This document shows positions 7,001 to 52,500 of a stretch of DNA of 64,000 nt, piece after piece. The first letter of the stretch is position 1; every line of letters starts with the position of its first letter. This stretch comes from Rhina ancylostomus (Eukaryota). The stretch is from NCBI GenBank assembly GCA_030265395.1, contig JARFYF010000094.1, positions 14,867,019 to 14,931,018 on the forward strand. Reading direction: 5' to 3'. A model generated the notes under the pieces. That model worked only from the letters and a program-made list of their open reading frames with translations. It ran no database searches and was not told the origin of the DNA. Both the position numbers and the translations under genes were made by a program.

Positions 7001-10000
7001 CTCTTTGAAGGAATGACCTAATTAGACACACGGCTCTTTACTTTGACAATAAATGTCCAAATGTTTCCTTTTTATTTATTACATTAACTTTAGAAAATTA
7101 CTTATGAATCTGCTTTTGCTACCCTCTCATGCATTGCATTCCAGATCATAGCACCTCACAGCCTAAGAATACAATGCCACTGGTTCTTCTACTAATTATA
7201 AATTGGTGTCCACATATCTGTGGCATTTTTCCCTGATCCTGCCGGAAATATTTGAGCACTTTGATTAATCCCTTCACCTGAGACAAACAACCCCAGCTTC
7301 TCAAGTCTCTACATAATAAGAAAAAAAAACTTGTCCAATGTTTAATTTCAAGGTTCAATTCCTTGGCCTGTTGCTGACTGAGAGAACAACTTATTAANNN
7401 NNNNNNNNNNNNNNNNNNNNNNNNNNNNNNNNNNNNNNNNNNNNNNNNNNCCCCCCCAAAAAATAAACAAGACCAGGATCTACATCAAAATGAATGCAGT
7501 TTCTAGGATTACCTTGGCAATGAGGGCCATAATGATTTTTACAACACTGGGGAATCCATAAAGGATTGACACATTGTCTGCTGCAGCCACTTATGAGACC
7601 AGTTTGACCTGAATGATGCCAAGTTTCTCGTGCCATGCTGTAGGGATATTCTAGGTTTTCTCGCCATTTGCTGTAGAAGCCAAAAATGCGAGGCAAAATT
7701 TGATCCAAGCTGAGTTTTCTGTAGTAGCACAATTGGTAATCTGCACCATCCTTCAAACAGAACACAGAAGTAGTGATCTCAGAGACTTAACCTTAGCATA
7801 TGGTATTAAGCTTAGCATTGATTGCAGAATACTCATTATTTTTCACTATGAAAACAATTTATAACTAGGCTTATAATTCTATTGTAGTTATGCCTTGCCG
7901 AGACAAGGTACTTCTCAGTAAATAAGAACATATGAAAAAAGAGTGCACCATTCAGCCTCTTTAGCTGCCAAACATCAAGATCATGGCTCACCTTCTACCC
8001 CAGTTTCATGCCCTATTCCTACACCCCTTGATTCCCTTAATATCTGGAAATATGTCAATTTCTATTTTGAATGCAGTCAATGACTGAGCTTTGACAGATC
8101 TTGAGGGTGGAGAATTTTAAAGATTCACCCACTGACTGAAGGAATTTCTCCTTTTAGTTCTAAATGGCCAACACCTTATTACGAGACAATACTCCTCAGC
8201 CAGGGAAATCTTTTCCCCTCATTTACCCTGTGAATCCCTGTAAGACTTCTGTGCATTCATCTCTTATTCTTTTTAACTCTAAGGAATACATGCTTGGCCT
8301 ACTCAACGTCTTCTAATATGACACATCTGCCATTCCAGGCACCAGTCTGGTGAAACACACAGGATGCTGGAGGAACTCTGTGTGTCAGGCAGCATCCACA
8401 GAGGGAAATGGACAGTTAACATTTCAGGTCAAGACCCTTCATCTGGACTGCTCTTTTACCACATTCAGTCCAGACGAAGGTCTCAACCCAACGTCTCCCT
8501 CCACAGATGCTGCCTGACCCACTGAGATCCTCCAGCATCTTGTGTGTTGCTCCAAATTCCAGCATCCACAGTCTCTTTTGTCACCAGTCTGGTGAAGTTT
8601 GGTTGCACCACCTTTAAAGCAAGTACATCCTTTTTTATAATAAGTCCAAAATTGTACACAATATTCTAGGTGCAGTCTCGTGGATGCCCAATATAATTGT
8701 GCTACTCAAATCCTCTTGCAATAATCTCCAACATACCATTTGTCTTTCCAGTTGCCTGCTGCATCTGGCTAGATTTGACTGGCAGTACAGAGCAGGAATG
8801 AATTGTATTGCTTCTTGATTGGTGTTCTAGTTTCAGACCAGAGACTACACTTACTCTTTAGACAGCCTGCCATTAGATTATCTCAACTTTACTTTCCCAA
8901 CTATTCCCGATATACTCAGGATATCCCAAAGTACCTTATTAACAATGGAAAAAATTGGCATGTACGAATCTTAATAATGGGTTAAAGGAAACACTGACAG
9001 TGACTGAGGAATACTGAGGATTAATCTGTGACCATCATGGACATAAGTAAACATAATCTATTGAGAAATATCTCCTGTAGTTATTGTACTGGATTACTTT
9101 CAATTACTTCCTTTAGGTAAACCTTTTATAAAATTGCATTGGTTCAGAAATTTAATGCAAACTTTCCACATAAAGCAAGTCTTACCTGAGGTTTAGATCC
9201 AGGAGGACAAAAAGGAGGCTCCAAACAGCTACCACATTTACCCTAAACATGAATAATCCACAATAAGCCAGAAGCATTTTTTATCATAAAAATTGCATGG
9301 AATCAGAACTTCCTTCTCCTGTGTTTGGGTCAATTGAAAGACTTGGATGCATTCATATAGGAGACTTGGATAGAACAGATTCCATGATCGTAAGTGGGCT
9401 GCCTGATTTTGTCCATTTAAAGCAATAAATGGGAAATCTGGTGGGCTTCTTCATATTATCACATTCACTCTTTTCTCATTGATCCATTATAGCCAGGGAG
9501 CAAATGGAAGAACATTTGTCCCAAATGTTTCGCAAGCCCATTGTTGTACCAAGAACAACAAAAACAGTCAATCTTAAATCAATTTTCTAAAGAAGAATAA
9601 GAGATTTTACTTATTACAAACTTTTTGAACCATGAAGGTTAATGATTGCCAACCATGCCACAATTATAAAGAAGATGTAATGAAAACTGGGAAAAGAACT
9701 TGAACAGAAATTACAAATGATATTGTGATGTATCATTCCATAAAGGATACTATAAAATCAAAAGAGAACAGGGTAAAGCAAGTATATATTAAAATCAATT
9801 TGAAAAGAAATACATCACAAAGCNNNNNNNNNNNNNNNNNNNNNNNNNNNNNNNNNNNNNNNNNNNNNNNNNNNNNNNNNNNNNNNNNNNNNNNNNNNNN
9901 NNNNNNNNNNNNNNNNNNNNNNNTGTCAAAACCAATTCCATCTGGGCCACATGCCCTTGCCGACCCTCCAATCAGTCCGTCCAGGCTTTGGTTAATTGGT

Positions 10001-13000
10001 GGGCAATTGTCCCTTTGAACGATCCGGATCAGCTTTGTGATCAGACACTCTTTCAATTTGTCCAATCTCAATGGTCATGGGCCAGGAAATAGAACAGCCT
10101 AGGTTTGGTAAGGAACGGTAGGTTATTCGGAGGCGGTGATGTTCCCGCTGATAAAAGCTGGGGCTTACTGTGAGTCGTTCAGTTGCTCGTTTGCTGGGCC
10201 AAGAGGCGGGATGGGCCAAAGCAGCTGAATTTGACATGACAGGTATTGCATGGATTGACTTCACCAGCTTCCCCACTGCAGACTTCGAGCATGGGTGCTG
10301 TGCAGCGGGCGCCCCGCTGGTTAAACCGAGTGTAACATGTGCCATCCCAACTCTTGAACAAAACACTGAAAGAACATGCGCCCCCAACACTGAGAAAATA
10401 CTGCCATGCGGCTCAATTGCAAAGCCAGAACCTAAAATAATTCCTGTTCACATATTATATTGTCATCTCCTCTTCAGTAAACTGCCTATTCCGCAGGAGG
10501 TTTCAACCAGTTTTTCACTTTCAATTTGTGAGAAAAGGAACTATGTAGAAATGTGAAGGCTGGAGAGTTTCATGAAGATAAGTATGGGCACAACACTGCG
10601 CAAAGTGTTCAACGAAATATATTTAGAAAGCCCCTTTAACTTAAAATTCATCAAACTTGTCAAATGGCGAAATAATACTGCAGTTCAAGGGAGAAGACGG
10701 AATGTGTATAATAAAAGCAGGGAAAAAATGCAAAAAATAGACATGCAACCAAAACTCATCCACACAATCGTTCTTTGTAAGTACCGCCATCGAACAGAGC
10801 AAACACTTTAAGCATTGATTCGGCAATGCTTTGTAATGTTACATTGTAAATTTGATGGATTCATGCCATCAACAAATGACTCACTTGGAAGAAGTATGGC
10901 CTGGGAATTGATGTTAAATTCAATACTCTGTGGTCCTTTTCCTTATTTATTCCCATTTTAAGCATTTTAGTGTTTAACTTGAGTATGGAAAAAAAATCAA
11001 ATTCACTCTAAATATGCTTAGTAACATGAACTTAGATTCCAGTCAGATAGATTGTAAAAAAAGTACCTCTCATTAAGAAAAGTTAGATAATATACCATTA
11101 GTATACCATGACATCCTGTCTCATCAACCCAGTTTCCCCTCACCAGTGAAACAATAGGAAGTAAAATGTTAGTGATACTTACAACAGCAGGGTGCATTGT
11201 AAGTGCATCACACCGAGCTCCTACATGCGGAGGTTCCAAGAGGTTATTGATGCCGTAAGCAATTCCACCATCAAACTCCAGGTGTCTTTGAAAAATCCGA
11301 GCACTTCCATCATTGACAATCAAATCCCCCTAAATCAAAGATAATACTGTATGAACAACATTTTATGCACTGGATGGTGATGGCATTATTAGGAGGCCAA
11401 GCTGTTGCTCCTGTCTTCCAACCTACCACTAAACTATCTTTTAATATTTCCTGGCCTCCATCCATTGCCTGACTCCATACTTGCTTGAAACTTATCCCAG
11501 AATTTGCAGTATTTCACTTTTATCTCAGCAGCTAAAATGGAATAAGCCACCAACTAAAAAAATAGTATAAACATTTAAAATTATTATTAAATACATATTT
11601 AAAGCATTAGGGTTGAGGAGGAAAGGTTCAGTTTGTGGAATGGTTTATATGGAATGGGTGATAGGAAATTAGTGGTAGGCTTTAAGACATAACTGATTTT
11701 TTTCAAATCATGTGGAAACAGATTGCCAATTCACTCATCTTGTGATCTCTATGAAGTGGGCTTCCCTTTTCTAGTGCTTGCTCCAAGGCATAGTTCAAAA
11801 GAATCCTTCAACCAACAACTGTGGGAACACCAACCTGGCTGAAGAGCCAATCACATCGAGCAATTCTTACAGATATGTAACCAAGAGAGAAAATGTATGA
11901 TTCTTCAGCAAATACTCTAAAAACTATGCAAAGCTACTACGTAACAGTTGTAATATACATACAAGATGGAAGCAAAAATATAAAAAATAGATATTTTATC
12001 ACTTTTTTTCCAAATATTTATGTAAGGGAATTACAATCCAATTACATAAAAGTGACGCTTTAGGTAGGTTGATAAAATTTGCTGAGCAGTATGATTTGAT
12101 ATGGTATTAAAATCTCATCTGGACCTCACATAACAAGATAGGAATTTCAGGGTTATTTCCAAAGTAGGATTAGTACATGNNNNNNNNNNNNNNNNNNNNN
12201 NNNNNNNNNNNNNNNNNNNNNNNNNNNNNNNNNNNNNNNNNNNNNNNNNNNNNNNNNNNNNNNNNNNNNNNNNNNNNNNACATAACAAGATAGGAATTTC
12301 AGGGTTATTTCCAAAGTAGGATTAGTACATGATTAGTACATGAATTTGTACCTGATTTTTTTTTGTCAATTCAACTGACTTCTCTCAAATGCAATAGAGA
12401 AACTGCTAAACAGCACGTTCTCTGATGTAATGCTAAATACAGATTGCAGTTTCAGGGTTTCCCATGGAATAGACAAGCATGAAATCCAAGAGTAAGATGC
12501 TATTTTCATGGTGCAACACCAATGAAAACTGATAATTTTGCTGTCATTACAAGCACAAAAGTTGGGCCATAATCATGAGTTCAATTGTTTTTCTTTTGGC
12601 CCTAATTTGGTTTATTTTCCTCACCCCAGGTTTCTGCTCTTAAGGTATTGGGGTCTTGTTCCATTTGCACTCTGAATCCTCCAGCATTTTATCTCATAGG
12701 CCACTTCTGTGAGCTGAAGCAGTGCCAATGTTTGTGAATGGGGAGTAGAGTCATGGTCAATCCAGATTCTGTCCTCAAGTGATATTCATGTCTATTTTTC
12801 TTCCAGAAGTCCAAAAAAAAGCCTTTGGCTGTGGCCAAAATAGAGTGGCCACTGCTGTTTCTGTACAACCAATAAACCCATAACAGATCATGTTTGAAAT
12901 TGGAAATAAAAACAGAGGAAGGAAATATTCAGCAAGTCAGGTGTCAAAGCAGAGCTACTGCTTTAAGGCAACAACCTCTCATCAAGTCACCAATCTGAAT

Positions 13001-40400: not shown

Positions 40401-43400
40401 AGGGGTCCTCACTGAAATGTATAAAATACTTAGAGTCTTTGACAGGGTAGATATGAGAGAATGTTTCCCCTACCCCTCTAAATAACGGGTAGACCACTTA
40501 GGATTGAAATGAGGAGAAATTTCTTCATTGGAGAATGAATCCTTGAAATTCTCTATCCCTGACAGCTGTGGTGGTTCAGCCATCAGCTTCATTCAAACCT
40601 GACATTGATAGATTCTTGAATATTAGCAAAATCAAAAGATGTGGGGAGAGGGCAGGATAATGCTTTTGAGCCAGAAGATTAGCCACGATTTTGGTGAATG
40701 GCAAAGCAGGTTCAAATGGTCATGTTCTTATGTTCTTAAGTTCTCATCACGTCAGATCTGATGATGAGACATGGCAACTCCAGTCTCAACATAAAGAACT
40801 CCAGACGTACTCCTGCTAGCTGCACTCCTCAGTCCCGCCACCTCTAGGAAGTCGAGTATTCAGGTGGTGTCCTTACCTAAACAGAAGTTATATTTGCTGT
40901 GGAGGGAGTGCAGCAGAGGTTGGTGCCTGGTTTGGCAGATCTGTTGTACGTGGAAAGATTGAGTGAGCCGGGTCTCTATTCTTTAGAGATTAGAAGCATA
41001 AGAGATGACATTATTGAAATGTATAAAATTCTTTGAGAAATCATTATGAAGGAGTCAGGAACATTTTCAGTTTTCGGGGGCAAAGAAATCTGAACTGTGC
41101 AACATAATAATAGAGTGGAACCCAGCATATGCATTCATTATTGATACATCTAATGCATTAAGCATCAGAAAGCCAAGTCAAAATTACAAAGTCTATCGCC
41201 GAATAAAGCACTCCAGTCTTAGACACATTTTATGTATTAGAATTTTTACATTTTCTTCTCACTTTGTAGTTTGCACAGTTTCAATGGGATGAGTAGACAG
41301 CCAGTTCAGCTCATCAGCACAATATGCAACCTCAAAAGAAGCCACAAATTTGTGACAAGGACTTCTAAAGCTCTTATCTGCACAAGTGTTCAGACCTTGG
41401 CTGAGTTATTAGATGATTCACTGTTCAGAAATTAGATATTCCTTCAAATCATGGAAAAACTGGAATCCATTTATATTCAAATTCCCTGCCAACAAAGTCA
41501 TTCACTGACAACATTTTACATCCCTTGCAATAAATCATTTATGGAAAGTTGGAATTAATCTCTTTCAGAATTATTTTGCAAAGAGAGAAATGTAAGGGCT
41601 CAAGGGATTACGTTGGGAAAGAAGAGCAAAACCAAAGATGGCTTCAGAATCTTTACTTACCATAAGGGTAGTCCCTTCAGGACATATGGGGTTAAGATCA
41701 CAGCTGCCACAAATTCCCTTAAAAAGAAAAGACATTAACTCTGATTTGTGTTCTGTTACACTGGCATGTGATTATACACAATATATAATCAAGCTAAGAT
41801 CTAAGAAATTTTTCTCTTGATGTGACATGAAAATAACACAAATAAAAAATACTTTATACAAAAGATATTCAATCCTCTATTGAGCAATTTGACTATGGGA
41901 AAACAACATGCAATGGTTGATAAAAGTATTTTACTTGATGCTGTTCAGAACTACATTAATCACATCAAGTCATGTGCATAATGTGAAAATTTTTTTTTAA
42001 AAACTGGATTTAAAACAGAAAATACTCAACAGCTCAGGCAAATTCTGAGGAGAGAGACAGAGACGATGTTTACGTCTCAGGTTGATGACCCGTCCTCAGT
42101 TCTGATACAAAGCCATTCCCCCATTGCTGCTTGACCAGTTCAGTATTTCCAACGTACCCTGATTTTGATTCATATTTCCAGCAACCAGTATTTTGATTTT
42201 ATAGAATCACTCAGAGCTTGAATCAGGATTTTATACTTAAATTTATGATGGATTAGGGAATTTTTTACAATAGCAACAAATGGAATCATTGGATTTTGAT
42301 GCCTAGATCTGTAGGTCTGTGTGGAGTAGAACATCTGTCCCAGTTGCACTAAACACTATATTGAGGGCTATAAAATCCTCAAAGCTCACTCTCCAAACTG
42401 TTGTGTCATGGAACAATCAGATATGTGCCTGCACCTGCAACTCCCCACAATTTGTAAGTGCCCCATTTCAACCATACCACTTGGAGTGGTTACAAACAAG
42501 AGGCAGCATAATAAAGGATTAGTTTAAGCAGCTGCTTTCAGTTGTTGTAAGAAAAACAGAAGCTTCCTGGTGATATTTCTTCAGCCTCCTTTGTTTGGAA
42601 GCATGTAAAGAAGTTAAAGGGAACAATACTGAAGCTGCCTTCATCAACGTATCACATCCAGACACGTGCATTGCAGATCCAGGTATCAAGTTCCAAAGGC
42701 ATGATGTTTGGGAGGTAATTTTGGTTACTGTAAAAAAATAACGTAGTGTTGATGGATGACAGGAGAATCAAGGTGGAGATGGTGAGCATGTGAAAGAGAA
42801 TTGGTCACAGGGAAGTAAGTGAGGCAATGGGATTAATAACTTCTTTCTGAAGGCTGGCATAGTCTCCATGGACCTCCTTCCTCCTGATGAGAAATTCCAA
42901 TGATTCTGTTTGTTACTCTTCCATAGTGTACCTAATCCATTACAAATTTAAGTACTAACTCCTGATTCAACCAATGAGTTATTTCTATAAATTTAAAATA
43001 TTCTGACTGCTGGAAATCTGACAGAAAATCAGAATATACTAAAGATACTGAGCAGGTCAGGAAACATCAGTGGAAGAGAACAGAGCTAATTTTTCAGGGT
43101 GATGACCTTGCAGCAGGATTTATGAAACGTCATCAACCTTAAAGTCAAGAGACACAAACCACCAATCTATGCATACACACACATTGTAGTATTTCGTACA
43201 TACCTCTACAATTACAGTCTCGTTAGTGTCACATCTATTCTTCTGTAATTGGAGGACTTGAGTTGTTCCCAGCAATATCCCATGTCTTGTCTCATTGTGA
43301 AATTCATTTAGTGGTACATTATTAACAAAAATCTGGAAAAATTATTGTATTTTCTGTCAATAATAATGAAATAACAGCTAAGTTTTTATGTGAATTATCG

Positions 43401-46400
43401 ATTTTGATATAACATAGTAATTATTCTCCTTCATAAAACACAGGACAACCTAACTCATGTATTAAGTAGGAGATTGACATTTAATAAGGGATGATTTTTT
43501 GCAATGCAGCATAGACAAGTGATATGAAGAGCTGAGTTTAAATGATGTCATGGTACATAGCTGAACAGAAAATCAATCTGGAATGAAAAACTGGGGTTGT
43601 AACAGTAACTAGACAGAAAAACTCAAAGTAATCAGGCAAAGTCAATGCGGTTTCTGAAAGGGAAGTCATGTCTGCCCAAGTTATTGTAGTTCTTTGAAAA
43701 GTATCATGAGCTGATAATAAAAGATGACCAATAGATATACACTGCTTAGATTTTCTATGAAGGTAGTTTATAACATGCCTCATTAAAGGTTAATGTGGAA
43801 AATAAAAGCTCACAGTGTAGCAGATAACATACTTGTGTGGATAGAGGTGAGCTGGCTAATAGAAAACAGATAGTAGGCATACTTTTATTTTCTGGTTGGG
43901 AAGCTGTAACGAAGACCCCAACTTACAAATTTATATAAATTACTTCGATGGTCTGATTGGTAAATAGTGACACAGAGATGGGTAGGAAGTAAATTCTGAA
44001 GTGGACATAATGAGGCCACAAGGGGTTGCAGTTAAGTGAATGAGCAAAGATCTGGTAAATGGAGTACAATGCGGGAAAATGTGATTTCATTCATTTTGGC
44101 AGTAAAACGTGTATATCCAAAAAGGTAAGAGATGAAGAATACTCCGAGGTGCAAAGGGATTTCGACGTCCTAATGCATGATTTGGAAAAGTTTAACATGC
44201 ATGTACAACGGGTAATTAGGAAAGCCAACAGAAGTGTTTATTGCTCAGGGAATTTAATACAAATACTTCAGATATATAGGATACTGGTGAACTCATAATT
44301 GGAGTACTATGTATGGTATCGGTCTCCTTATTTAAGGTAGGATGTATGTGATTCAGAAGTAGATTAGAAACAGTTACTAGACGACACCTGGAATGGGCAA
44401 GGTGCCTTAAGTAGAAAGATTGGATGGCTTGTTTAAAGTCCAATGCTATTCAGGAGAGGACTCGATTGAAACATACAAGATCCTGAGAAGGTCTTGACAG
44501 GGTGAACATAGAAAGGACATTTCCTCTTGCGGGTAAATCTAGAACTAGGGATTATCCATCTAAGACAGACGAGATGAATTTTTTTTTCTCTCGGATGGTT
44601 GTGACTTTTTAGAAATCTCTTCCTCAAAGGGTAATGGAAGCAGAGTCTTTTCTTATCATGTATCTATCTACCTCTGCCCTAAAATTAGTCAAAGTAGTGA
44701 AAGCTTACTGTGGGTGGTCAGGAATGTGAAGTTAAGGTCTCAGACTGAAAGCCACAAAATGAATTGGTGGAGCAGACTCGAGAGGCCAAGTAGCCCACTC
44801 ACGTTCCTGATATGTTCACAAGGTTATACAGATTTTCCGGATTGTTGTAAAAATTTGGTTTATTTCCAAATGGGGCAGTTTCAGAACAAATCTAACAGCT
44901 AAAATTTGGACAAATGTGGAGACCTGCAGACTACTGGCAGAAGTAGAATGGTAATCCACCACAATTGCCATCCTTAATGTATGGCATGAAAAACACAGAG
45001 ATGCTGGAGGAACTCAGCAGGCCAGGCAGTAGCTGTGGAGAAAAGCAGGCGGTCAACGTTTCGGGTCAGAACCCTTCTTCAGGACTGAAATTAGGAAAAG
45101 GGTAAGCCCGATATATAGAAGAGAAAAGCAAAGCAGTGATAAGTGGACAAAAGGGGGGAGGCAGGGTGGGCAAAAGACAGTGATGGGTAGATGCAGGTGA
45201 GAGATAGTGATAGGCAGACCCCTCCCCCACTTTTCTCCACGGATGCTGCCTGGCCTGCTGATTTCCTCCAGCATCATAGTGTTTTTCATCTAGATTCAAG
45301 CATCTGCAGTCCTTTGTTTCTCTTGATATATGGCATATCCCTCAGTCTACCAATACCGCATCAAACCAATGAGGTGTGTAGTTGGTCATGACAGAACAAC
45401 ATTAGGTGCCACACTGGTGAAGCCACAGCAGAGAGCTACATGCGTGCTAAACAACAGAAGCAGACAAAGCTAAATGAGTCCAAAGCCAATGGATCAAATC
45501 AGAACTCGAAACTTGTCACATCTAATTGTGAACGTCTGTATGTAAAAGAAGAAAGGGAGTAGGGGAATACCTTTGGTGACAACAGAGCTCAATAAGTCAG
45601 TGCAGGAAATAAGGCTGAATCACTTGCAAGCATGTTCAGCCAGATGTACCTGCTGAACAATCCATCTCACTCTCCTCCTGAGGTCTGCAGGATCACAGAA
45701 GTCAGTCTCAGGACAAGCTATTTCACAAGGTATGAGAAATAGCTGAGGGCACTGGATAGAGCTGAGGCTATGAGACCTGTAGTATTGAAGGCATGCTCCA
45801 GAACTAACACCACCTCTAGTCAGTAATTCTGGTACAGACACAATGCTATCATTCTCTTGATGATATGAAAAATTTTCCAGGTACGCTTTACCATACAAAA
45901 AGGGACAAATACAATATGGATCATTTCCTCCTTATTAGTTTACCCTCAATCATCAGCAAAGTGACGAAAGGAGGCATTGTCTATGTTTTCTAATGGCATT
46001 TAGTTTCTAATAACCCACTCACCAATGCTCAGCTCAGGATCCACCAGGACCAGTGGAGTCCAGACCCCATTTCAGCCTTGGTTGGGCAAGGACCAGAGCT
46101 AAATTCCACAGGTGAGTAAAGGTGACTAAACTTGACATCAAAGCAGCATTTGATCCAGGATCCCCAATAAAACTGGAAATAAGGAGAAAAATTCTCCAGT
46201 GGTGAAAGTCGCATCTGACACAAAGGTCGCTGGTTGCTCGTCTTCAAGCCCAATCACCTCAGCCTCTGGAGATTGCTCCTGATATTTCTCACAGTAGCAT
46301 CTTTGGATCAGTCATTTTTAGCTGCTTCATCCAAGGCTTTCAATCCATCATAATGTCAGAAGTGAGGATGCCAGCTAATGGTTGCTTAGTATTGAGTTCC

Positions 46401-49400
46401 TTTTGCAGCTCCTCATTTCAAGGCTAAGGTTCAAGCAATAAGATTTGGATAATTCTCAGGCATGGGCTGATCAATGGCTCCAGAACTAGTATCATGTATA
46501 GTCAAGTACTTCTGCTAGAGTTACAAGGCTGTTGTCCTCTCAACGATATTTTTAAAAAATCCTAGATAGGCCTAAACACAGAAAAATGGACAATTCCAAT
46601 AAAAGGTCATTTCCAGCTTATTGGAAAGAAGACAATGATCAACATCAGTCATAGAGGTCTAGCTACATCCCCTGACCATCAATGCAACAACCCCTCACCA
46701 AAAAATCCTGGTAGGGAATCATAGGGATGAAAGTTTGGACTTAGGGGTGGGAGAGAGATTCACTGTTAACCAGAAACTGGACTAGCTACATAAATCCTGT
46801 AGTTACAAGGGCAGAACGTAGTTTATATCCAATGGTGAATGACCTGCACCTCAACTCTCCTAAACCCTTCCCCCATCTAGAAGGTGAAATTGGGTGTATG
46901 GCAAATGCAAATCTAAATACATTAAAGAAGCTCAACATCATCCAAAACAAAGCTGTCTATTTAATTAACATCCCATCCACCACTTAAATATTCTGGCAAC
47001 ACACTGTTCTGCATTGTGCACCGACTACAAATGGCATTGGAGCAACTTGCCAAGGCAACACTACCTCCCATACTCTCAACCTCTGCCACCTAGAACAACA
47101 GCAGTGTCACAGTCCACAAGTTTCCCTTCACATCAAAACTATTCTGGACACAGAACTACATTGTTCCTTCATTGTGGCTGACTCACAAACATGGATCTCT
47201 GACCTTGCAACATCACCACCACCACCAGATGGAATGCAGTCATCCAAGAAGATGGCTCACCACCACCTACTACTCAAGAGCAGTTATGGAATACTGGCCT
47301 TGGCAATGATGCCCACTAACTGAGAATGAGTAATTGTTTTTTCTTAAATAAATCTTGACAAATGTGCTTGATTATCTCTGGAGTGCCGAAACAGATTAGC
47401 AAACTACTCGGGTAAAGCAATCTGCCACTAATATTTTAATTATTCAACAAGAAGCCCCTGAATGAATTTCTCTGGGCAACTGAGGACAGTACTAAATGCG
47501 AGCCTTGTTGCCGATGTACACTTGAGGAATGGGGAAAAGAATAACTTCAAACAACATCAGCTTCAAATGCTTTGTAGCAGTTCATCGGCTAATAAACTCC
47601 AGAGCATCAGTAACACAACTCACTGTTTAAAATGTTATTCCTAAATTCTCATCTGTACAAAAGAGAAGTGATCGAACACATCAGCTCAACCACAGAGAGT
47701 CTCCTGAGAAAGCAGCTGCAAGGATAAAACCAACCTCCTCTATGTTAAAGAACAGCTGCCTTCTCTTTTGGGATTTTAATAGATGTGAACCAAACAAAAA
47801 AATACAAATGCAGCAGGCTCAAAAATGCATGTATGGCCTCAACAGGAAACGATAAAGGGCTAACATCAATTAATGTGATCNNNNNNNNNNNNNNNNNNNN
47901 NNNNNNNNNNNNNNNNNNNNNNNNNNNNNNNNCATCATCTAGATATGCATTATGGCATGAAGAACTAAACTCTGTTAGAATGTGTTCGCAGCCAACACAT
48001 AACTAGGTTATAGAAGGTATTAAATCCCAATCTTAATGACTTTGTTTTAAAGAAAATACACAGATCAAGTTTGCATTTACAAGGGCTCATTTTAGAATTA
48101 GTTGAGCATTAGCACATCTTTACCAACTGCCAAAATGCCTCCAGGAACCAAATCAATTTTTAAAGCCTGTTACACAAGCATAGCACTGATGTATTTTTGG
48201 CTTGTTGACAGCTGAATAGATCCCAAACACAGATGAAATTTTAAGTATTCCTGTTTGTCCTCTAGTTCTGATCAAATGGTTGGTTGGAGTGAGTGAAACA
48301 AGTTGACAGAGTTGCAGCAACGAACCAAAAGTGACTTGTAGTAAACCATAACTCAATGCCTTTAGTCTACACAGTAGCATGGATGTATCACCTTTGGAGG
48401 AGGAGGATAATGAGGTAAAGTGCACCAGAGGAGAGCAAGGTCATAGAATGACAACCATCAACATCCATTACTGTTCTAGGGACCACGTCTTCCACGTGAT
48501 CTGCCTGAGCCTCAATGAGGATCAAAGTAGTTGGAAGCAAAAGTCACAGCATTAAGATAACTGGCAGGAAATCCAGAGAGGGTTCGGGTGTGAGCAGAAA
48601 TTTTTTTTATGCAATAAGTTGTAATAATCAGGAATGCACAACTTGAAAGGATGGTGGGCAAAGATTCAACAGTAGCTTTTAAAATGAAATAGATATATAC
48701 CTACAAAAGGAAAAAAAAATGCAGAGCTATGGAAAAGGATTCGATGAATGGTATTAACTGGATAGATGCATGACTCTATAATTCCACATTGCAGACGTAC
48801 ATATCACACCTGTATTCCTGCAAATGATGTAACAGTGGAAAAGAGTATGCCATGTAGATACAAAGCACGTTCCATACCTGACCTTTCCTCCTGTAGAATA
48901 TTACTTGATACAATGATCCCAGCATAGTTCTTCTTTGAATTCCATCTTTGATTGTATCGTACAGAAGCTTCTCCCCAGGAATAATATGATACTTCACCTG
49001 TTAAAGAAAGAGCAATTTCACTTAAAGGACCTCAAATTATCATCAAAGAAAAATTTTAATCCAATAGGTTTATGGTTACTTTCAGCACAGCCAGTTATCC
49101 TCTCCTAATATACGCTAGAGAATAATGGCACAACCACTCCTACAAGGCAGAGTTTCAGCTAATGCAGCAACATTAGCACATTATTTTCCAGAGACAGAAG
49201 ACACTGCAGATGCTGGAATCTGGAGCAGCAAACAATGTGCTGGAAGAACTCAGGAGGTCGAGCAGCATCTGTAGGAGGAAAGAAATTGTCAACATTTCGG
49301 GTCGAAACCCGGCATCAGGGCTGGGTGTGGAGAGGTGAGATGGACAGCTTAGATAGGAGAAGGGGAGAGGCAAGAAAGGATATCCAAGGATATCCGAGAT

Positions 49401-49571: not shown

Positions 49572-52500
49572 CCATATAACATTCACCTGCCACAGTCTTC
49601 CAACTCCACCCCCACTCACATCCCCTACCTCGCACTTCCTGCCTGTCATTTTGCACCCTCCAATGCTTCCCCCCACTNNNNNNNNNNTCCACCAATCACC
49701 TCAGAATCCTTTCTTGCCACTCCCCTTCTCCTCTCCAAGCTGTCCATCTCGCCTCTCCACTCAGCCCTGATGCAGGGTTTCAACCCAAAACATCAACGAT
49801 TTCCTCCCACAGACGCTGCTCGACCCACTGATTTCCTCCAGCAGATTGTTTGCTGCAGCACATGGTTTTATCACTGCTTGTCATGTAATCCCATTTCAAA
49901 TGCTTATCAAACTGGAACGGTGAAGAACATTCACCATCCATACTCTGGCCAGAATCACAAAGGTAAGCTCCTGGAGTGTCCAGAATTCCAATCTGGGTCT
50001 CTGTTGCTCTGCCTCCTTCAGTTTTCCCATCCAGAATCGGGGATACCTTCTCACCACCCTTTTGTGGTCCAGTGGTAAACTAGAAAGTAGGATATTATTG
50101 GTCCGGAGTTGGTGCGATGCCCTGGTCCATTTGCCTCAGGCCTTAATGGTCAATGACTAGAGACAAAGAGGTTTGGCTTTAAAATGAACCAGGCCTCATA
50201 ATTAGACTACAGAGAGTCAAACAGAGCATTCTGTAGCCAAACAGTTTGAAGTCCACCTGGAGGGAAAAAAGTCATGATGGGAATCAAGAAAACAGGAAAC
50301 ATACCAGCTGTTCAATATTTTCAGCTCTGTAGTACTCTTCGAGTACTGCATCTTCCGGTATTAATATAGTATACTGTTTGGAGGATTCTAGCTCATCAAT
50401 TAGACGGTATTGCTAAAAAAAAACACACAAAAAAAATCAGTGATTAATACCTGTTGTTCCATTAAAATTCAGGTTAAATATGATCAATTCTGCAGCACAA
50501 AGCAAGTTTACTCCACTGTAAAACTTTATCAAAAGTAGGTCCTTTGCCAACCTGAGATTTGGTTCCCGATCTGTGCAGCTGGCTGGATTGTTTGGGGAGG
50601 TGGCGCTTGGGGATTTGCAATTCATGTCAGGCTTCAGAAAAAAGTTCAAGGGTCAATGAATAAACTGGGCCTTGGACATCAGATCACAAGAGGTCTGCAC
50701 TAACGCCTTACATCACTGGGTGGGGAGACAGTACTCACTGTCAAGTTACTTCAGGTTTACACACCTTAAATGGTGTTTCCTCAGCAACACAGCTTGTTAC
50801 AATGCCAGGGGAGAGTCTCTCATTAGAAGTCATTAGAGGGTTACGAGCAGATACGAGTCACACACCACACCCTCTCTGCCCAGAGCAAGGTGCAGTAATC
50901 CAGCATAGGAAGCTGTAACTTCCAATCACAGTGTCTTTGGCCTGTCAGTGGGCACTGGCTACTGGATGCAGTCCCCATTTGCACCACACCCAAGGATTCT
51001 TTTAAGAGAACACAAGAAAATAGTAGGAGTAGGCCACTTGGCCCCTTAAGGCTGTCCTGTAATTCAGTATGATCCTGACAGACATGCCCCAGGACCCAAT
51101 TCCTCCTGTGCCAGCTGCCCATTGCTCTCAATTTCCTGATCTTTTAAACTTTTATCTACTTTCTCTTTAAATGTCCCCAGNNNNNNNNNNCTTCCACCAC
51201 CCTCTGGAGTAGGGAATTCAGCACCTCACCAAGAAGAAATGCTAACACACCTCAGTTTTAAATGACCACTCCTTTACTTTGTGACTATGTCTCCTCTCCC
51301 ACTACTAGAAACATCTCAGCATCTACTCTGTCAGGCCTCCTGAAGATCTGGTACATTTCAATAAGATCACCCTGATTCTTCTAAACTCCAAAGAATCCAG
51401 ATTTAACTTTATTAACTGTTCAAAATGGGACAAGCCTCTCATCCCAGGAATTAGCCTAGTGAATCTCTATAGGATACCATCAATGCTAGTAAAGCCCTTC
51501 TCAAAGAGGTAGGACATACTTAAATAATATTTCAGGAAAATTGCTCCAAAGTGATCGATTTTTCATCTCATTTCAGTCACATGGCATATTACAAAAATGT
51601 GCCATGCAACAGGGAAGTGTCGTGACTAGAGTCATATCTGTCTATGCACAACTTGCACAAGGTCATCCCAGGCTGTTCCAATGTGACAGGAGATTTCATT
51701 GATTGTTCTGCAGTTCTTGAATGAATCCCAACACCATGTGGGGTAAATAGTCATGGAACCACAGAGTTCTACGGCACAGAAACAAGCCCTTTGACCCACT
51801 ACATCCAAGCCAATCATTGCATCCATCTCCACTAATCCCATTCACCTGCATTACACCAATAGCCTTCTATGCTTTGGCAATTCATGTGCTTGCTCAGATG
51901 CTTCTTAAGTGTTATGAGAGTATCTGCCTCTACCACCTCTTCAGGCAGAGTATTCCAGATTCCCCCAGAACAATCTACGCAAAAGATGTATTTCACTGTG
52001 TGTTTTGATATACATGTGACTAATAAAGACATCTTATCTTATTCCAAACACTTTGTGTGAAAGCTTCCCCTCAGATCCCCTCTAAACCTCCTCCCTGCCA
52101 CCTTAAACCTACGTTCTCTCATCTTAGACATCCCAACCATCGAGAAAAGATTCTTGTTATCTGCCCTCCTCATATTACACAATGTCTGACTCAAAATTCA
52201 AGCAAGAGGCCATGCTCCAAAGACCCCAGGTAAAACTGGTACCAGCACCCCACATAGCACCATTTTGGTGCAAGATTTTAAATCATGATCAATCTCGAAG
52301 GAAGAATGGAATATCTGTTTTCACGTAACAACCTTAGGACATTTTTAAAAATTCTAAATTTTCATTTATATTTCTCAATAACCACGTGTTTAAAGCGGTC
52401 AGACAGCACACCTCCAATATTTTGCCTATGTTTTCAACTTACCTGTAATAACTGCTTGAAATGAGAGTACTGAGGCAACTGTTCTAGAAGTTCCAGCAAA

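Follow-up and report, generated by a model that had tools for sequence, protein, structure and literature searches.

The stretch analysed here, referred to as the window, is 64,000 nt of Rhina ancylostomus DNA (contig JARFYF010000094.1, positions 14,867,019 to 14,931,018). Its minus strand carries EGF and Fasciclin exons, which identify the host as a stabilin gene. A homologue search with the stabilin sequence returned one short fragment without a paralogue name. The tail-to-tail neighbour of the gene is NT5DC2-like, with an 85-96% match to ray and shark proteins. By synteny, NT5DC2 presumably pairs with STAB1 and NT5DC3 with STAB2, so the host gene is likely stab1. A second Fasciclin-domain gene lies beside a second NT5DC gene at G000:C29:41.04-41.12 Mb and is presumably stab2.

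The window also holds two other repeats. A degenerate tandem array with a 32-nt period lies within a stabilin intron (25356-26553), and a perfect 52-nt direct repeat occurs at 12128-12179 and 12280-12331, with the copies 152 nt apart. The direct repeat might stem from a recent duplication or from faulty assembly.

One intron of the stabilin gene contains a short retroelement insertion with a hammerhead motif. The features of the intron, the insertion and the motif are listed in Table 1, together with examples of variant motifs found elsewhere in the window.

Table 1. Features of the stabilin intron, the insertion and the hammerhead motif (window coordinates)
Feature	Position	Strand	Remarks
Host intron	43333..48877	-	~5.5 kb, phase 0, GT-AG; flanked by two stabilin exons of the Fasciclin region; inferred from exon translation
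Target-site duplication, left copy	44973..44987	.	15 nt, 2 mismatches, 2-nt overlap with element end
Arm 1, 5'-truncated 3' end of Penelope-like element	44986..45217	-	90.5% identical to subfamily majority
Minimal type I hammerhead	45052..45085	-	direct reading of sequence
Stem I	GUC 45085-45083 with GAC 45054-45052	-	3 bp
First box, CUGAAGA	45082-45076	-	
Extra A	45075	-	
Stem II	45074-45071 with 45066-45063	-	4 bp
GAAA box	45062-45059	-	
Zero-loop ACGU (stem III)	45059-45056	-	
U17	45055	-	
Predicted cut	between 45055 and 45054	-	
Pyrimidine run	45095..45102	-	predicted partner of 45080-45072; the pairing would mask both the CUGANGA box and stem II's 5' strand
Junction between head-to-head arms	45218..45229	.	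12 nt
Arm 2, inverted pLTR end	45230..45323	+	96.8% identical to majority
Tail of arm 2	45290-45323		34 nt
Target-site duplication, right copy	45322..45336	.	2-nt overlap with tail end
U4A example	8345-8450		
A9C examples	49186-49361, 49687-49856		

The hammerhead motif

Read from 45085 to 45052, the minus strand gives GUC, CUGAAGA, A, GGGU, UCUG, ACCC, GAAA, C, G, U, U and GAC. The CUGANGA and GAAA boxes, U16.1 and H17 are all present, as are an extra nucleotide between A9 and 10.1, a G10.1-C11.1 pair and a palindromic 15.2-16.2, and helix III is absent. An earlier note on this DNA had described a minimal type I hammerhead on the minus strand, and both the letters and the layout of the motif read exactly as it claimed. 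Its placement of the motif in a stabilin intron, in the orientation of the pre-mRNA, also stands, given the minus-strand EGF and Fasciclin exons and the GT-AG intron. The same note had called the core near-intact. All 27 of the constrained positions checked are retained, and this is the sole such copy among the 18 in the gene. One correction applies: GUU and a short stem I are normal for the subfamily (U17 in 14 of 16 copies) and do not reflect decay, and the 34-mer differs from the subfamily majority by a single C>U change in loop II.

A chance resemblance to a hammerhead would be in keeping with several measurements. The bare 34-mer folds into the 3-bp stem I and 4-bp stem II at -6 kcal/mol, which is not better than its shuffles (z 0.11). 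The two boxes alone match nine times within the window against 6.6 expected, a chance level, since at least nine matches appeared in 22 of 100 shuffles. Nine of ten tested stem pairs lack covariation, and an Rfam search returned eight matches with no hammerhead at E<=5, a scan that is uninformative for minimal motifs. We nevertheless consider chance highly improbable. The exact 34-nt pattern occurs 582 times in the 2.2-Gb genome and not once in the reversed control, so the motif is part of a repeat and not a chance match. In addition, its position in the end repeat (pLTR) of a Penelope-like element (PLE), the extra nucleotide at 9/10.1, the G10.1-C11.1 pair and the palindromic 15.2-16.2 fit the consensus given for PLE minimal hammerheads (PMC4209133).

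The motif in the stabilin intron belongs among the minimal hammerheads of PLEs. With the metazoan examples presented by Cervera and de la Pena (2014; PMC4209133) it shares the type I form without helix III and all of the consensus features just named, the extra nucleotide lying between A9 and 10.1; shared too are the predominance of single motifs in truncated copies and the presence of several families per genome. It differs from them in its 4-bp stem II (7-8 bp in Schistosoma), its 3-bp stem I and its GUU triplet. The text and supplement of that paper, as searched, contained no shark or ray example.

The parent element and its insertion

For upstream reading we fetched the 30 best of 40 DNA matches listed. 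Several of these 30 extend upstream into a 3'UTR and then into the end of an ORF, and the order in longer copies is RT, zinc-finger linker, GIY-YIG, 3'UTR and hammerhead. The ORF upstream of the same pLTR carries a GIY-YIG domain, a CX4CxxC linker and CCHH residues. Family copies also carry upstream the motifs DKG, PKIHK and YIDD, which we take to be PLE RT motifs, and an RT fragment matches HTH_animal/RVT_1 clusters at 0.96. In one copy (L049), RT, EN and hammerhead follow one another in a single stretch, again with the CX4CxxC linker. Pfam gave a relevant match for none of five decayed EN and RT fragments, and the longest RT-bearing copies translated are frameshifted. In 30 RT loci, none longer than 3.5 kb and many of them interrupted by stretches of N, we found no full-length element, no intact ORF and no upstream pLTR of the kind expected in a pLTR-ORF-pLTR tandem. 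The copy in the stabilin intron is a stub without RT and EN, both of which are present in longer copies of its subfamily. With 582 exact cores and a family linked to RT and GIY-YIG, the proposal that the motif belongs to an abundant Penelope-derived repeat of a cartilaginous fish is borne out.

By the criterion of Craig et al. (2021; PMC8557442), the CX4CxxC linker points to a probable place in the Neptune or Nematis clade. The family shares with the Neptune/Nematis EN+ PLEs described there the RT, a CX2-5CxxC linker and, at the C terminus, a GIY-YIG with CCHH, as well as 5' truncation, an inverted copy and a 30-40-nt tail at one end only. It differs from them in that the 30 RT loci contain no intact ORF and no upstream pLTR.

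Our search of the literature on shark and ray Penelope hammerheads returned no paper describing this family and a single preprint, which reports pLTR-derived retrozymes in one chondrichthyan genome and may include the family (bioRxiv 10.64898/2026.07.22.740005). The motif could on that precedent be a monomer of a non-LTR retrozyme, a tandem non-coding hammerhead repeat that makes circular RNA. This is extremely improbable at a locus that has inverted arms and no tandem array, in a family whose hammerhead is minimal and not canonical and whose units have same-strand hammerhead neighbours in only 3 of 202 cases. The upstream sequence in the subfamily moreover runs into an RT-EN ORF, and this linkage refutes a retrozyme identity for the stabilin-intron copy, which is a Penelope end fragment instead.

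The whole insertion is a 338-bp head-to-head stub. Arm 1 comprises 163 nt upstream of the cut site, the hammerhead and a pLTR end at +68, and has no tail; arm 2 begins 9 nt beyond the cut site and has the tail but no hammerhead. Young arms in the family have two fixed 3' ends (+68 and +102) with a tail on one arm only, and 14-17-nt duplications flank seven of nine inverted units tested. The stabilin-intron stub thus displays 5' truncation, an inverted arm and a one-sided tail together. We infer that the element's endonuclease would have nicked the target, that reverse transcription would have been primed by both target strands, at the +68 and +102 start sites of the pLTR, and that two truncated arms, one per target strand, would then have been joined head to head. 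A head-to-head layout with target duplication is described for EN+ PLEs in the legend to Fig. 2 of PMC8557442, and the two 3' ends agree with the pair of RT start sites that PMC11167929 shows for the anole element. Another inverted pair of the same Penelope family, at 19790-19981 of the window, forms a hairpin that gave the best Rfam match (MIR2118_2, E 0.016).

The 5' ends of the arms bear on the template. The sampled blocks contain 49 head-to-head pairs that abut, and 30 of their 98 arm 5' ends cluster at -38 to -30, where stem I starts, a pile-up that could be inflated by poor modelling of old upstream sequence. Ends within 4 nt of the cut site number 4 of 98, below the background of 6.6 per 9 nt. 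The templates were likely uncleaved RNAs that started, or stopped reverse transcription, just before the hammerhead. As described in PMC11167929, the PAc element of Anolis likewise has two RT start sites bounding the tail, a minimal hammerhead in the pLTR and no indication that ends fall at the cleavage site. PAc belongs to the Poseidon clade and was tested in vitro, whereas the family described here consists of decayed fragments known from sequence alone.

In a related organism, the final ~25 nt of the tail and the unique flank occur together on one 340-nt contig. This overlap is below our 31-letter bridging rule and only hints at a shared insertion. None of the contigs of that organism (run X2) spans the hammerhead motif at this locus.

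Subfamilies and the decay of copies

We sampled the family in blocks in four CUB-domain genes, oriented by exon strand and with nested genes possible, and in the stabilin gene, a total of 1.53 Mb of which 1.25 Mb is non-N. An iterated profile gave 302 matches over the sample and none in reversed sequence, and 133 of the matches span the entire hammerhead. Clustering by flank used the 120 of these 133 that had enough flank, and four clusters of at least 10 copies were analysed. The copy in the stabilin intron belongs to the youngest subfamily (~10% diverged), the majority sequence of which already has an A at N7 and a GUU triplet. At G000:C12:19.49-19.59 Mb, CUB-domain exons switch strands over 100 kb, which could reflect either inversions within a cluster of genes or faulty scaffolding.

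Core and flank decay alike among copies, with non-CpG divergence from the cluster majority of 152/1192 (12.8%) in the core versus 579/4542 (12.7%) in the flank. Per-column retention predicts that ~5% of copies in the youngest subfamily should be fully intact, and one of 15 is, namely the stabilin-intron copy. Its intactness is explained by chance retention.

Across the four subfamily majorities, invariant columns make up 9/11 of the core, 11/14 of the stems, 30/42 of the flank and 0/6 of loop II, N7 and H17, a comparison in which the core does not clearly surpass the downstream flank. One of the ten stem pairs is compensatory, a C-G to U-A change in stem I (23 copies versus 16.5 in shuffles, p 0.015) that represents a single event. 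These patterns suggest past selection on the source elements and none on the copies. The earlier note held that a lack of self-cleavage, together with boxes no more conserved than the flanks in the family consensus, would refute its proposal. On conservation our results speak partly against the note: core and flank decay equally among the copies; in the majorities, core and flank stand at 9/11 and 30/42, with none of the six free positions invariant.

Intron cleavage and core variants

The earlier note also proposed that this copy might cleave the stab1 intron co-transcriptionally. Our results argue against this on three grounds: no intact cis partner, suppression of the modelled fold by the native flanks and no depletion of sense copies. 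Because the ACGU stem III lacks a loop, the motif depends on a partner, and none of the nine other sense copies in the 131 kb of the gene, of which 9 kb reads N, is an intact same-strand dimer partner. In an equilibrium model, which ignores co-transcriptional kinetics and proteins, the probability of the hammerhead fold is 0.58 for the bare motif and drops to between 6e-6 and 8e-5 once the native flanks are included, a modelled suppression of ~7 kcal/mol. The model attributes the suppression to the upstream pyrimidine run, which pairs with the first box and stem II. On these grounds, cleavage of the intron by this copy is unlikely.

In the majority sequence of the youngest subfamily, N7 is an A, which is predicted to provide the last pair of a 6-bp hairpin formed with upstream sequence; this hairpin would occlude the first box. 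Together with the GUU triplet, this predicted hairpin suggests a self-silenced motif in that subfamily. GUU cleaves more slowly than GUC. It is listed as an active NUH site in PMC3138052. For Schistosoma, PMC4209133 reports no detectable cleavage by a single minimal hammerhead and little by dimers, and PMC11167929 reports that cleavage by the anole PLE hammerhead depended on PLE protein, whose insertion activity worked without cleavage. The present hammerhead would probably need a dimer partner, the element's protein or both, and the stub appears to have neither.

Strand counts are near parity. Intronic copies that cover the hammerhead number 69 sense versus 64 antisense in the sample, and intronic insertion units 50 versus 45. 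Introns thus show no depletion of sense copies, although all copies presumably had an intact motif at the time of insertion. Copies that are still intact are too few to test by strand (boxes, 7 sense and 8 antisense; stems, 4 and 3; strict, 2 and 0). The youngest subfamily has 4 sense versus 12 antisense intronic copies (4 versus 11 by a second definition), a post hoc difference in one of four subfamilies that is not significant; the other three have 23/14, 15/10 and 20/20.

Our preferred reading, to which we assign a probability of about 0.88, is that the motif is the pLTR hammerhead of a Neptune-type Penelope-like element and is probably carried along passively, decaying neutrally without cutting the pre-mRNA. 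It is very unlikely that the copy instead cuts the stab1 intron at a low rate, through a trans dimer or with the help of a protein (a host chaperone or one encoded by the element), and so dampens or regulates stab1. Its core is fully intact and in sense, and hundreds of intact partners exist genome-wide; the gene itself holds no cis partner, and the native flanks suppress the modelled fold. Protein-assisted cleavage has been shown for another PLE hammerhead (PMC11167929), but the longest RT-bearing copies translated here were frameshifted. The weak sense deficit of the youngest subfamily would fit such cutting, while introns overall show no strand bias and arm 5' ends near the cut site fall below background. 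Cutting of the intron by this copy would mean that a ribozyme of retroelement origin acts on a host gene; we found no report of host-gene action by minimal PLE hammerheads in the literature searched.

We regard as very remote the broader idea that intact intronic sense copies are latent ribozymes, which would cut pre-mRNA when a protein or a trans partner refolds them. Were it true, hundreds of Penelope stubs would form a switchable intron-cleavage layer in a cartilaginous fish, and the weak sense deficit of the youngest subfamily would be explained. The amniote intronic hammerheads, such as that of human RECK, are likewise intronic and in sense; as presented in PMC6155905 and PMC7229834 they are few, highly conserved and equipped with tertiary contacts, in contrast to the high-copy, neutrally decaying minimal motif described here.

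As a passive passenger, the stabilin-intron copy itself matters little, being one of 582 equally intact cores, and the family is more useful than this copy. PMC8557442 describes as unclear what hammerheads do in EN+ Penelope elements. In this genome there are natural subfamilies whose cores carry U4A, A9C or GUU, and the 5' ends halt ahead of stem I and not at the cut. Altered cores and such 5' ends fit the in vitro result given in PMC11167929 that cleavage is not needed for insertion.

The two core changes mark separate subfamilies. U4A is found in 19 of 37 copies of one flank-defined cluster versus 6 of 83 elsewhere, and A9C in 20 of 25 copies of another versus 8 of 95 elsewhere. Since both forms are found downstream of EN remnants, they were probably already present in coding source elements. 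Elements with altered cores were amplified.

These variants raise the possibility, which we rate somewhat below even, that the hammerhead-derived motif was already catalytically weak or dispensable in source elements and was kept as a structured end for starting or stopping reverse transcription. It is compatible with the reading of the stabilin-intron motif as a passive passenger and concerns the family rather than that copy. The conservation pattern among the majorities, with core 9/11 and free positions 0/6 invariant, is instead that of past selection for a ribozyme; stem I has its one compensatory change, and natural core variants can stay active, as documented in PMC3088659. The accumulation of arm 5' ends at the start of stem I speaks for a weak or dispensable motif, as do the GUU triplet and competing hairpin of the youngest subfamily and the fixation of U4A or A9C in subfamilies, some copies of which are linked to EN/RT remnants. 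The same two changes outnumber others at their sites: among the first 100 of 1236 pattern matches, tallied by eye, there were 11 U4A versus 3 U4C and 10 A9C versus 1 A9G.
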